A stretch of 64,000 nt of DNA from Escherichia coli (lineage in GTDB: Bacteria; Pseudomonadota; Gammaproteobacteria; Enterobacterales; Enterobacteriaceae). Position numbers and translations under genes: made by a program. Where the stretch lies: the NCBI RefSeq assembly GCF_003334405.1, contig NZ_QOWM01000009.1, one strand, 5' to 3'. The notes under the pieces were generated by a model. That model did not search any database and was not told the origin of the DNA. It was given only the letters and a program-made list of their open reading frames with translations. Positions 31,961 through 35,247 of this stretch are shown here, piece after piece (the stretch's first letter is position 1; each line of letters begins with the position of its first letter).

Positions 31961-32740
31961 ATGGCATTTAAGATCTGGCAAATTGGTTTGCATTTACAAC
32001 AGCAAGAAGCGGTAGCGGTTGCGATCGTGCGGGGCGCAAAAGAATGCTTTTTGCAACGCTGGTGGCGGTTGCCGCTGGAGAACGACATTATCAAAGATGG
32101 GCGGATTGTTGATGCGCAGCAGCTGGCTAAAACGTTGTTACCGTGGAGTCGCGAACTGCCGCAGCGTCATCACATTATGTTGGCGTTTCCCGCCAGTCGC
32201 ACATTACAGCGGTCATTTCCGCGCCCGTCGATGTCCCTTGGTGAGCGGGAGCAAACGGCCTGGCTGTCAGGGACGATGGCCCGCGAGCTGGATATGGATC
32301 CGGACTCCCTGCGCTTCGATTACAGCGAAGACTCACTCAGTCCCGCCTATAACGTGACTGCCGCGCAAAGCAAAGAGCTGGCAACGCTGCTTACTCTGGC
32401 AGAAAGGTTGCGTGTTCATGTGAGCGCGATCACCCCGGATGCCAGTGCATTACAGCGATTCCTGCCTTTTTTACCTTCTCATCAGCAATGTCTGGCCTGG
32501 CGTGATAACGAACAGTGGCTGTGGGCGACGCGCTATAGCTGGGGGCGCAAACTGGCGGTGGGGATGACTAGCGCGAAGGAGCTGGCGGCAGCGTTATCCG
32601 TTGATCCCGAAAGCGTCGCGATATGTGGCGAAGGCGGATTTGATCCCTGGGAGGCCGTTTCTGTTCGTCAGCCGCCGCTACCGCCGCCAGGTGGAGACTT
32701 TGCCATCGCGCTGGGGCTGGCGCTTGGGAAGGCGTACTGA
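31961..32740 (+). CDS. hofM: PilM-like DNA utilization protein HofM
   Basis: 259-aa product MAFKIWQIGLHLQQQEAVAVAIVRG...; first gene of five tightly linked same-strand genes; start 9 codons inside the track ORF. Confidence 0.88.
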   Translation: MAFKIWQIGLHLQQQEAVAVAIVRGAKECFLQRWWRLPLENDIIKDGRIVDAQQLAKTLLPWSRELPQRHHIMLAFPASRTLQRSFPRPSMSLGEREQTAWLSGTMARELDMDPDSLRFDYSEDSLSPAYNVTAAQSKELATLLTLAERLRVHVSAITPDASALQRFLPFLPSHQQCLAWRDNEQWLWATRYSWGRKLAVGMTSAKELAAALSVDPESVAICGEGGFDPWEAVSVRQPPLPPPGGDFAIALGLALGKAY

Positions 32741-33279
32741 TGAACCCGCCAATTAATTTTTTGCCCTGGCGACAGCAACGCCGGACCGCTTTTCTGCGTT
32801 TCTGGTTGCTGATGTTCGTTGCGCCTCTGCTGCTGGCCGTCGGGATAACGCTAATACTGCGTCTGACAGGCAGCGCCGAAGCGCGCATAGACGCAGTTTT
32901 GCTTCAGGCGGAACAACAACTCGCCCGCAGCTTACAGATAACGAAGCCACGTTTGCTGGAGCAACAGCAGTTACGCGAACAGCGTTCGCAACGGCAGCGC
33001 CAGCGACAATTTACCCGCGACTGGCAATCTGCGCTGGAAGCACTGGCGGCGCTTTTACCCGAGCACGCCTGGCTGACAACGATAAGCTGGCAGCAGGGAA
33101 CGCTGGAGATCAAGGGGCTGACAACAAGCATTACCGCGTTAAACGCACTAGAAACGTCACTCCGCCAGGATGCATCTTTTCATCTCAATCAGCGGGGAGC
33201 CACGCAGCAGGATGCGCAGGGACGCTGGCAATTTGAGTATCAGTTAACAAGGAAGGTTAGCGATGAACATGTTCTTTGA
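32740..33279 (+). CDS. hofN: PilN-like DNA utilization protein HofN
   Basis: 179-aa ORF with N-terminal TM segment and Gln/Arg-rich coiled region; start overlaps the hofM stop by 1 nt. Confidence 0.88.
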   Translation: MNPPINFLPWRQQRRTAFLRFWLLMFVAPLLLAVGITLILRLTGSAEARIDAVLLQAEQQLARSLQITKPRLLEQQQLREQRSQRQRQRQFTRDWQSALEALAALLPEHAWLTTISWQQGTLEIKGLTTSITALNALETSLRQDASFHLNQRGATQQDAQGRWQFEYQLTRKVSDEHVL

Positions 33280-33703
33280 CTGGTGGTTCGCCACATCACC
33301 CCGCCTCCGCCAGCTTTGCTGGGCATTCTGGTTGCTGATGTTAGTTACGCTCATTTTTCTGTCATCGACACACCATGAAGAGCGCGACGCATTAATTCGA
33401 CTACGGGCAAGTCATCACCAGCAGTGGGCCGCACTGTATCGCCTGGTAGACACCACTCCCTTCAGCGAGGAAAAAACGCTGCCCTTTTCGCCACTGGATT
33501 TTCAGTTATCCGGCGCGCAACTGGTTTCCTGGCATCCATCCGCGCAGGGAGGCGAGTTGGCGTTGAAAACGCTGTGGGAAGCAGTGCCGTCGGCATTTAC
33601 ACGGCTGGCAGAGCGCAACGTCAGCGTGAGCCGTTTTTCGTTAAGCGTGGAAGGTGATGATCTTTTGTTCACGCTACAACTGGAGACGCCGCATGAGGGT
33701 TAA
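33263..33703 (+). CDS. hofO: PilO-like DNA utilization protein HofO
   Basis: 146-aa ORF overlapping the hofN 3' end by 17 nt; N-terminal TM segment. Confidence 0.87.
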   Translation: MNMFFDWWFATSPRLRQLCWAFWLLMLVTLIFLSSTHHEERDALIRLRASHHQQWAALYRLVDTTPFSEEKTLPFSPLDFQLSGAQLVSWHPSAQGGELALKTLWEAVPSAFTRLAERNVSVSRFSLSVEGDDLLFTLQLETPHEG

Positions 33704-34097
33704 ACGCTGGTTGTTGGCAGGTATTGCATTGTGCCTTTTAACCGGTATGCGTGACCCTTTTAAACCGCCGGAAGATCTATGCCGGATTAGCGAACTTAGC
33801 CAGTGGCGCTATCAGGGGATGGTAGGGCGAGGCGAGCGCATCATCGGTGTAATAAAAGACGGGCAAAAGAAATGGCGACGGGTGCAGCAAAACGATGTGC
33901 TGGAAAACGGCTGGACAATTTTACAGCTGACGCCAGACGTACTAACGCTGGGTACCGGGACAAACTGCGAACCGCCACAATGGTTGTGGCAACGGCAAGG
34001 AGATACAAATGAAGCAATGGATAGCCGCACTACTGTTGATGCTGATACCCGGCGTACAGGCGGCAAAGCCGCAAAAAGTGACGCTGATGGTGGATGA
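33693..34097 (+). CDS. hofP: PilP-like DNA utilization protein HofP
   Basis: 134-aa product MRVKRWLLAGIALCLLTGMRDPFKPP (lipoprotein-like signal); start 13 codons inside the track ORF. Confidence 0.86.
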   Translation: MRVKRWLLAGIALCLLTGMRDPFKPPEDLCRISELSQWRYQGMVGRGERIIGVIKDGQKKWRRVQQNDVLENGWTILQLTPDVLTLGTGTNCEPPQWLWQRQGDTNEAMDSRTTVDADTRRTGGKAAKSDADGG

Positions 34098-35247
34098 CGT
34101 TCCGGTAGCTCAGGTGTTGCAGGCGCTGGCTGAACAGGAGAAGTTGAACCTGGTCGTGTCGCCAGACGTCAGCGGTACGGTGTCGTTACATCTAACAGAT
34201 GTTCCCTGGAAGCAGGCACTACAAACTGTAGTGAAAAGCGCCGGACTGATAACGCGGCAGGAAGGCAACATTCTCTCAGTGCATTCCATTGCCTGGCAGA
34301 ATAACAATATCGCCCGCCAGGAGGCGGAGCAGGCGCGGGCGCAGGCAAATCTGCCGCTGGAAAATCGCAGTATAACCCTGCAATACGCCGACGCGGGAGA
34401 ACTGGCGAAAGCGGGGGAGAAGCTACTGAGTGCCAAAGGGAGTATGACCGTCGATAAACGCACCAATCGCCTTTTGCTACGAGATAACAAAACGGCGTTA
34501 AGCGCGCTTGAACAGTGGGTAGCGCAAATGGATCTGCCGGTCGGGCAGGTTGAGCTGTCGGCGCATATTGTCACCATTAATGAAAAAAGTTTGCGTGAGT
34601 TAGGCGTGAAATGGACGCTGGCCGATGCGCAACACGCTGGTGGCGTTGGGCAAGTCACCACGCTTGGTAGCGACCTCTCCGTAGCGACGGCGACAACGCA
34701 TGTCGGTTTTAACATTGGGCGCATCAACGGACGCTTGCTGGATCTTGAGCTTTCCGCGCTCGAACAAAAACAGCAGCTGGATATTATCGCCAGTCCGCGT
34801 CTGCTGGCCTCACATCTTCAGCCTGCCAGCATTAAACAGGGGAGCGAAATTCCATATCAGGTTTCCAGCGGGGAAAGTGGCGCGACGTCGGTGGAATTTA
34901 AAGAGGCCGTCCTGGGGATGGAGGTCACGCCCACGGTGTTACAAAAAGGTCGCATCCGGCTGAAATTACACATCAGCCAGAACGTTCCGGGGCAGGTGCT
35001 ACAGCAGGCCGATGGCGAAGTGCTGGCGATTGATAAGCAGGAGATCGAAACGCAGGTCGAGGTCAAAAGCGGAGAAACGTTGGCGCTGGGCGGCATTTTT
35101 ACCCGTAAAAATAAATCGGGTCAGGATAGCGTACCGTTGCTTGGCGACATTCCCTGGTTCGGGCAATTATTTCGTCATGACGGAAAAGAAGATGAACGAC
35201 GCGAGTTAGTGGTGTTTATCACGCCACGACTGGTTTCCAGTGAGTAA
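34009..35247 (+). CDS. hofQ: Secretin-family outer membrane DNA-uptake channel HofQ
   Basis: 412-aa ORF with signal peptide MKQWIAALLLMLIPGVQAAKP and a secretin-like C-terminal domain; start lies 89 nt inside hofP. Confidence 0.92.
   Translation: MKQWIAALLLMLIPGVQAAKPQKVTLMVDDVPVAQVLQALAEQEKLNLVVSPDVSGTVSLHLTDVPWKQALQTVVKSAGLITRQEGNILSVHSIAWQNNNIARQEAEQARAQANLPLENRSITLQYADAGELAKAGEKLLSAKGSMTVDKRTNRLLLRDNKTALSALEQWVAQMDLPVGQVELSAHIVTINEKSLRELGVKWTLADAQHAGGVGQVTTLGSDLSVATATTHVGFNIGRINGRLLDLELSALEQKQQLDIIASPRLLASHLQPASIKQGSEIPYQVSSGESGATSVEFKEAVLGMEVTPTVLQKGRIRLKLHISQNVPGQVLQQADGEVLAIDKQEIETQVEVKSGETLALGGIFTRKNKSGQDSVPLLGDIPWFGQLFRHDGKEDERRELVVFITPRLVSSE

Follow-up and report, generated by a model that had tools for sequence, protein, structure and literature searches.

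The 89-nucleotide hofP/hofQ overlap of the Escherichia coli hofMNOPQ operon, a same-strand overlap likely translated and selected in both frames

Can two bacterial genes on the same strand overlap by as much as 89 nucleotides (nt), so that the end of one protein and the beginning of another are read from the same DNA? This question is raised by hofP and hofQ, the last two genes of the hofMNOPQ operon of Escherichia coli, which we analyzed in a 64,000-nt stretch of contig NZ_QOWM01000009.1 (RefSeq assembly GCF_003334405.1; the whole of this stretch is called "the window" below). A survey of 338 genomes found holD/rimI, at 32–56 base pairs (bp), to be the longest genuine co-directional overlap, and none longer than 60 bp was genuine (PMC2478687). 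An earlier note on this DNA had described five coupled genes at positions 31961–35247 with an 89-nt hofP/hofQ overlap. The listing of open reading frames (ORFs) and the RefSeq annotation of an identical E. coli chromosome (window position = locus position + 30199), which agree with one another and are the source of the gene coordinates in Table 1, bear this out; the successive overlaps hofM/hofN, hofN/hofO, hofO/hofP and hofP/hofQ are 1, 17, 11 and 89 nt.

Our reading, to which we assign a probability of about 0.8, is that hofMNOPQ encodes a type IV pilus-like DNA-uptake machine, that the overlap is genuine, and that the tail it gives to HofP is likely translated and selected. The operon is already known at textbook level, as are its regulation and its part in DNA uptake; the overlap is a modestly new detail of it.

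Table 1. Window coordinates of the hof genes, gntX and associated features
Feature	Position	Strand	Remarks
Candidate gntX CRP-S site TGCGAGCTAAGTTCCT	9968–9983	-	1 mismatch to TGCGA-N6-TTCCA; in bioH, 138–153 nt upstream of gntX
gntX	9147–9830	-	227 amino acids (aa), ComF family, same regulon as the hof operon
Published hofM (yrfD) promoter fragment	31685–31810	+	Electrophoretic mobility shift assay (EMSA) fragment; PMC1635313 primers map exactly; two predicted CRP-S sites reported at its ends
Second candidate CRP-S 22-mer atcTGCATcggaatTTGCAggc	31693–31714	+	Read from the sequence; chance-level score
Conserved block	31770–31925		First ~31 mrcA codons (minus strand) and first 60 nt of the mrcA-hofM spacer
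Candidate CRP-S-like 22-mer taaATCGAgcctgcTCCCAgca	31774–31795	+	Best score upstream of hofM; C at positions 6 and 17
Hairpin/palindrome CCCGTCA-gag-TGACGGG	31925–31941		Between the conserved block and the hofM Shine-Dalgarno sequence
hofM Shine-Dalgarno sequence AAGGAG	31946–31951	+	9 nt before the ATG; conserved across species
hofM	31961–32740	+	259 aa, PilM-like cytoplasmic component; RefSeq, PilM-structure profile match
hofN	32740–33279	+	179 aa, PilN-like, N-terminal INFLPWR motif; Pfam PilN
hofO	33263–33703	+	146 aa; Pfam PF25319 HofO
hofP	33693–34097	+	134 aa: signal sequence, PilP-like β domain (residues ~20–100), disordered tail (101–134)
hofQ Shine-Dalgarno sequence AAGGAG	33997–34002	+	Inside hofP, 6 nt from the ATG; predicted to be unpaired
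Dual-coding overlap	34009–34097	+	89 nt: hofQ signal peptide and first N0 residues (frame +1 relative to hofP); HofP residues 106–134 and stop
hofQ	34009–35247	+	412 aa, PilQ-type outer-membrane secretin without AMIN domain
Terminator-like stem-loop with T-rich tail	35251–35274	+	Directly 3' of hofQ; consensus scan, frequency no higher than in shuffles, suggestive only

Conservation of the overlap and of the hofP stop

Loci from 55 other species were collected with a HofP profile, and nine more through representative proteins. They show the hofP/hofQ junction in a long and a short form. About 55 species of Enterobacteriaceae and Pantoea have a long overlap of 59–98 nt, mostly exactly 89 nt, and there is one case of 140 nt; the long-form genera are Escherichia, Salmonella, Citrobacter, Enterobacter, Lelliottia, Trabulsiella, Klebsiella, Atlantibacter and Pantoea, with overlaps of 59–92 nt in Klebsiella aerogenes, Atlantibacter and Pantoea wallisii. 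Seven species, including Mixta, Duffyella and a Leclercia, have the short form, in which hofP stops at or next to the hofQ start (overlap of -1 to 8 nt). The lengths are bimodal, with a gap from 8 to 59 nt, as though a hofP stop within the signal-peptide region were disfavoured. Short-form HofP proteins end in ...REGA(K/R)K with a 4-nt ATGA overlap, and a one-base frame difference just upstream of the hofQ start separates them from the long form.

The overlap is conserved, and so is the position of its end. In 48 of the 51 long-form species compared, the hofP stop is a TGA formed from the adjoining HofQ codons GAT and GAx of a conserved V-D-D/E motif; two of the other three stop one codon earlier, and the third runs on to 140 nt. 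The first Asp of this motif is encoded by GAT in 49 of 51 species, compared with 67% GAT elsewhere in hofQ. The species with the 140-nt overlap is Enterobacter sp. ENT03 (locus L029), in which the motif has a GAC codon and hofP therefore continues past it.

Codon choice in the overlap and its possible causes

If the hofP frame of the overlap is used, the synonymous sites of hofQ should not be free to vary there, and they are not. In simulations that resampled synonymous hofQ codons according to each species' own hofQ codon usage, 17.2 premature stops were expected in the hofP frame of the overlap among 50 species and none is observed; as a calibration, the same frame in the body of hofQ has 1072 stops against 1009 expected. 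Taken alone this first test of stop avoidance overstated the case, since an internal control shows that T-ending hofQ codons are scarce all through the overlap and not only at would-be stops. The evidence was therefore reframed as a general constraint by the hofP frame and checked against the short-form species. T occupies 3.1% of hofQ third positions in the overlap, compared with 17% expected and 19.8% in the gene body, and the figure for the same hofQ codons is 16.9% in the seven short-form species (Fisher p = 5e-11). These species form a natural control, and the lack of T depletion in them is in our view decisive for a reading in terms of selection. In the hofP frame, a T at a hofQ third position begins codons for stop, Cys, Tyr, Phe, Trp, Ser and Leu, and the tails have 0% Cys (5.2% in the simulations), 0.1% Tyr (3.1%) and 7.1% of the residues FILMVWYC together (18.4%). 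The E. coli overlap makes use of the rare codons ATA (twice), CTA and CCC. The hofQ synonymous sites in the overlap are thus shaped by the hofP frame, from which we infer that the 29-residue HofP tail is most likely made in vivo and that selection most likely keeps it open, free of Cys and non-hydrophobic.

It is possible, though rather unlikely, that the tail is instead without function. A one-base frame change near the end of hofP would have removed an ancestral ATGA-type stop, so that hofP reads on to the next one, and the tail would be open simply because that frame of a signal-peptide sequence offers few opportunities for stops. The short forms, which end at just such an ATGA one base of frame away from the long form, suit this explanation, as do the predicted disorder of the tail, its absence from seven species and the fact that E. 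coli itself has only two hofQ-synonymous changes able to make an earlier stop. Across the species, however, there are 107–170 contexts in which a stop could be created and none of them is used. Nor would a functionless tail account for the five-fold depletion of T at hofQ third positions, absent where there is no overlap, for the avoidance of Cys, Tyr, Phe and Leu, or for a stop position held by synonymous choice of GAT.

Gene 5' ends often show unusual codon usage, and instead of reflecting translation of the hofP frame the bias might have arisen in the mRNA, for example from its structure or from the loading of ribosomes where hofQ starts; the ribosome-binding site there is predicted to be unpaired. 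We regard this as quite improbable, given that the predicted fold around the hofQ start has no stability beyond that of shuffled sequences (z = -0.81), that the same hofQ codons are unbiased in the short-form species, and that the bias is specifically against T, which gives stop, Cys, Tyr, Phe, Trp and Ser in the hofP frame. A ribosome-binding site buried in structure and opened by translation of hofP was also considered and is unsupported, the site being unpaired and the fold ordinary.

An annotation artefact, with the true start of hofQ downstream of the hofP stop or an earlier end of hofP, is very improbable even though none of 715 co-directional overlaps of more than 60 bp was genuine in the survey cited above (PMC2478687), for the hofP frame has no stop before 34095, every in-frame start codon after 34097 would delete the signal peptide and begin within the N0 domain, ATG 34009 follows a consensus Shine-Dalgarno sequence at 6 nt and is a conserved start in about 55 species, and both proteins have the lengths of their orthologues across genera (126–138 aa for HofP and about 405–420 aa for HofQ).

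From ATG 34009 HofQ begins with a typical signal peptide (MKQWIAALLLMLIPGVQA, followed by AK). In all of the roughly 55 loci there is an ATG or GTG at this position followed by a signal-peptide-like N-terminus, and all species compared have a Shine-Dalgarno-like GGAG or GAAGGA before it. The statement of the earlier note that hofQ starts inside hofP is thereby upheld, and its suspicion of a start-site problem is contradicted by the comparative evidence, according to which the overlap is genuine and selected. Four Enterobacter loci (L052, L048, L051 and L053) start hofQ with GTG and have GAAGGAACGAAAAAAAGTGA, a Shine-Dalgarno-like element with a run of seven A, about 25 nt before the start. In all species the TGA of the (A/G)TGA at the hofQ start lies in the -1 frame of hofP, and ribosomes that slipped by -1 on the A-run would terminate HofP at that point, where it also ends in the short-form species.

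Several points weigh against our reading of the operon and of the HofP tail. The tests treat species and codons as independent, and dereplication (<85% identity) reduces shared ancestry among them but does not remove it. The stop-specific test against the local T frequency is modest (p = 0.0025 with all species and 0.023 with the dereplicated set). Tail composition is largely set by the signal-peptide codons, and no tail motif independent of HofQ was shown. The seven species without the tail indicate that it is not essential to the machine, and the operon is essentially unexpressed in laboratory culture. Finally, the CRP-S sites of hofM were not pinpointed from the sequence: upstream of the gene neither form of the motif has a match with two or fewer mismatches, and the best 22-mer scores at chance level.

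With these points in mind, the translated and selected tail would fit into the working of the operon as follows. In ordinary culture the operon is silent; cyclic AMP-CRP together with Sxy switches it on, according to the literature, through weak CRP-S sites inside mrcA, and the five genes would be translated from one mRNA. Translation of hofQ would initiate independently, at its strong, unpaired Shine-Dalgarno sequence and the ATG 89 nt before the end of hofP, and this start would be fixed because no other retains the signal peptide that the secretin needs. Throughout the signal-peptide region, ribosomes on hofP would run one base ahead of the hofQ frame until they reach the TGA in GAT-GAx, and would so add to the PilP-like domain a tail of 29 residues that is hydrophilic, rich in Gly, Ala, Asp, Arg and Lys, and predicted to be disordered. 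HofM, HofN, HofO and HofP would form the inner-membrane and periplasmic alignment subcomplex, like PilM, PilN, PilO and PilP, with HofQ as the outer-membrane secretin. One may guess that the tail contacts HofQ, or that it serves as a periplasmic spacer.

On balance we also favour the view that the hofP/hofQ junction is a genuine and ancient dual-coding region of 59–98 nt, dating back at least to the divergence of Enterobacteriaceae and Erwiniaceae, with the signal peptide of the secretin in one frame and a selected disordered HofP tail in the other. It resembles holD/rimI in being a same-strand overlap conserved in Enterobacteria in which both proteins have orthologue length (PMC2478687), but it is longer (59–98 nt, mostly 89), spans a whole signal peptide and shows signatures of selection in both frames at the codon level. 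Under the gene names searched, hofP/hofQ does not appear in the supplementary lists of that survey, and it looks like a real exception to the rule given there for same-strand overlaps longer than 60 bp. If the reading is true, the overlap is a clean counter-example to the view that such overlaps are always artefacts, and it warns against annotation rules that trim them automatically. A signal-peptide coding region would then be able to carry a second selected reading frame, selection in both frames being rare for same-strand genes. The reading would also suggest a role for the tail in HofP-HofQ assembly, with HofP residues 106–134 as a concrete target for studies of how the E. coli DNA-uptake machine is assembled.

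The hof locus and its proteins

The chromosome is of K-12 type, the 3.8-kb hofMNOPQ stretch is 100% identical to that of E. coli DH1, and the operon is carried by all 5426 of 5426 complete E. coli genomes (at least 80% coverage). The gene order is mrcA (minus strand), hofM-N-O-P-Q, and then aroK and aroB; M-N-O-P-Q in this order beside mrcA/ponA and aroK-aroB is found also in the Klebsiella, Atlantibacter, Pantoea and Duffyella loci. The mrcA gene starts at GTG 31841 in RefSeq and at ATG 31865 in its longest ORF, so the 95-bp mrcA-hofM spacer of the earlier note holds for the longest ORF and becomes 119 bp with the RefSeq start. There are signs of decay or variation of the operon in some strains: the type strain of Escherichia albertii, NBRC 107761 (L027), has a premature stop at about codon 34 of hofP, the N-terminal part of hofQ is disrupted in Citrobacter koseri NCTC10786 (L007), one E. 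coli strain, EC09, has an IS1 insertion inside the operon, and the run-on of hofP in Enterobacter sp. ENT03 may be counted with them. A protein search also found many truncated HofP variants among E. coli assemblies.

The identification of these proteins as PilM/N/O/P-like components and a secretin is borne out by matches of differing strength. HofQ matches NF007851 over its full length (855 bits, cut-off 598) and the PilQ secretin family TIGR02515 (449 bits, cut-off 284). Its closest solved structure is the Vibrio cholerae PilQ-family secretin 6w6m (2.1e-74; PilQ chains in PDB range from 2e-74 to 5e-54), and the alignment begins at residue 158 of the 6w6m chain, so that the extra N-terminal region is missing from HofQ. 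HofN matches Pfam PilN (3.1e-9), and its INFLPWR motif (residues 5–11) is kept as (I/V)N(F/L)LPWR in all orthologues; we take an N-terminal peptide of the INLLPWR type to be a hallmark of PilN. HofO matches a single Pfam family, PF25319 (HofO EspM-like, 2.2e-25), and has no match to Pfam PilO. As a single sequence HofM has only weak, sub-threshold similarity to the Pfam and TIGRFAM PilM families, but a profile of 18 orthologues matches the PilM structures 3jc8 (9.4e-8) and 2ych (5.6e-4) over HofM residues 5–170 only; at 259 aa HofM is about 100–130 residues shorter than the solved PilM proteins (377–395 aa). HofN, HofO and HofP have no match in NCBIfam. GntX, which the earlier note had called ComF-like, is above the cut-offs of both NF008616 (432 bits, cut-off 304) and the ComF family TIGR00201 (276 bits, cut-off 234).

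HofP matches Pfam HofP over its whole length (3.7e-80). An AlphaFold2 model built with 68 diverse homologues has a β-rich core with a predicted local distance difference test score (pLDDT) above 90, and a tail from about residue 101 on with pLDDT 49–64 and no secondary structure. In a Foldseek search of PDB the model has PilP at ranks 1–5, 7 and 8, the HR domain of enterotoxigenic E. coli GspC at rank 6, and HR domains of other GspC-family proteins of type II secretion systems (LspC and PulC) at ranks 9 and 12; a HofP profile search of PDB gives three matches in all, every one of them PilP (best E = 0.0036). No lipobox Cys is conserved in the HofP family, whose consensus after the hydrophobic segment is ...LTG/ALA-(M)RDPF, and its invariant cysteines, C30 and C92, are both within the domain.

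A known system close to hofMNOPQ is PilMNOPQ of the type IVa pili of Pseudomonas aeruginosa, Myxococcus xanthus, Neisseria and Thermus, whose genes have the same order beside ponA/mrcA and aroK-aroB; the likeness extends to the match of the HofM profile to PilM structures, to HofN and PilN, to the HofP core and the PilP/GspC-HR fold, and to HofQ and PilQ. It departs from PilMNOPQ in the lack of an N-terminal AMIN region in HofQ, in the short HofM, in a HofO that matches only its own Pfam family, and in a HofP that, unlike the lipoprotein PilP, has no lipoprotein Cys after its signal sequence and does have the overlap-encoded tail. The comABCDE(F) operon of Haemophilus influenzae is orthologous; it is divergent from ponA with a CRP-S site overlapping the upstream ORF, and its induction, like that of E. 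coli hof, needs Sxy and CRP (PMC1635313). Unlike those of H. influenzae, the E. coli CRP-S sites are asymmetric and weak (PMC6728893), and the E. coli counterpart of comF, gntX, is a separate transcription unit.

Regulation and the DNA flanking the operon

Induction of the operon by Sxy and CRP, whose absence the earlier note had named as a refuting outcome, has been published before: with Sxy, expression of yrfD (= hofM) rises 16-fold, an effect that depends on CRP and is abolished in a crp mutant (PMC1635313). It has been confirmed by quantitative reverse transcription PCR (PMC3330819). Expression of sxy from a plasmid, together with recombineering functions, gives hofQ-dependent DNA uptake and transformation (Sinha and Redfield, PMC3330819), and work by Finkel and colleagues, as it is cited in that paper, indicates that growth on DNA needs these genes. 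No natural inducing condition or unaided transformation is known for E. coli (PMC3330819). The remark of the earlier note that E. coli is not known to use this machinery for transformation is thus correct for unaided cells and does not extend to cells given sxy and recombineering functions.

The same note had seen no CRP-S site in the mrcA-hofM spacer. Our motif scans find none there either, but the published predicted sites lie elsewhere, inside mrcA. Cameron and Redfield predicted two CRP-S sites for yrfD and observed a weak CRP band-shift of the promoter fragment (PMC1635313). This EMSA fragment lies wholly within the mrcA coding sequence, 151–276 nt upstream of hofM, so a search of the spacer only could not reveal the sites. 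The palindromic motif TGCGA-N6-TCGCA that had been proposed for a scan is not the appropriate one, since the E. coli motif is the asymmetric TGCGA-N6-TTCCA (PMC6728893). With up to two mismatches allowed, the palindromic form is found near neither hofM nor gntX and is less frequent in the window than in shuffles, and the asymmetric form has no match upstream of hofM. The taaATCGAgcctgcTCCCAgca 22-mer, which lies at the start of the conserved block described below, matches 6 of 8 core positions; such a score has a chance rate of about 0.8 per 385 bp in our home-made weighted scan and is not significant. The proximal end of the atcTGCATcggaatTTGCAggc 22-mer is 246 nt from the hofM ATG, the position of the published "-246" site (Figure 4 legend of PMC1635313). 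For gntX, 9968–9983 is a plausible CRP-S site within the coding sequence of the divergent bioH, judged by its letters; the window has seven 1-mismatch matches to TGCGA-N6-TTCCA on both strands, which is a chance of about 3% for an upstream region of 300 bp.

Upstream of hofM, nearly every column of the 155-nt block at 31770–31925 agrees with E. coli in at least 90% of 29 dereplicated species, which range from E. coli to Pantoea, and mrcA third codon positions within it have a conservation of about 0.9 (mean 0.61). The idea that this block is exceptional was rejected, because the hofQ-aroK spacer, taken as a control, has a comparable near-invariant leader block of about 150 nt upstream of aroK. 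Both are therefore read as promoter or leader DNA and not as anything exotic, and 31770–31925 is probably the shared promoter/leader DNA of the divergent mrcA and hofM. A 40-codon ORF, MQQTARIKKYFTNFTGNFPFSFIWAVYKQTRGSIKASQTH, spans most of the block (31798–31920, plus strand, antisense to the mrcA start) and was rejected as a small protein; it has no Shine-Dalgarno sequence, and its few substitutions hit first and second codon positions, which is not coding-like. Rfam models run over 31400–35700 gave only a sub-threshold match to asponA at 31687–31712 on the plus strand (14.7 bits, E = 0.34; gathering score 113); asponA is a Pseudomonas RNA antisense to ponA. P. aeruginosa has a validated antisense RNA that overlaps the promoter of ponA (PMC4180829), and the match here is treated as a by-product of ponA homology.

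Most species retain the stem of the hairpin at 31925–31941, with loops that vary and some changes that affect both sides of the stem (CCGTC/GACGG to CCGTT/AACGG); insertions of about 50–100 nt take the place of the hairpin in Klebsiella aerogenes (L060) and Pantoea (L058). If the promoter-like site at 31981–31952 on the minus strand is real, the hairpin could be a stem-loop at the 5' end of the mrcA mRNA. At the other end of the operon, the otherwise poorly conserved hofQ-aroK spacer contains two near-invariant blocks. The one at 35296–35340 reads TTGACG...AAGGAG and is followed by a TTG-initiated ORF of 28 codons with an unconserved body, which ends at a terminator-like hairpin at 35388–35406; the other, at 35500–35647, is the block of about 150 nt mentioned above and lies directly upstream of aroK.

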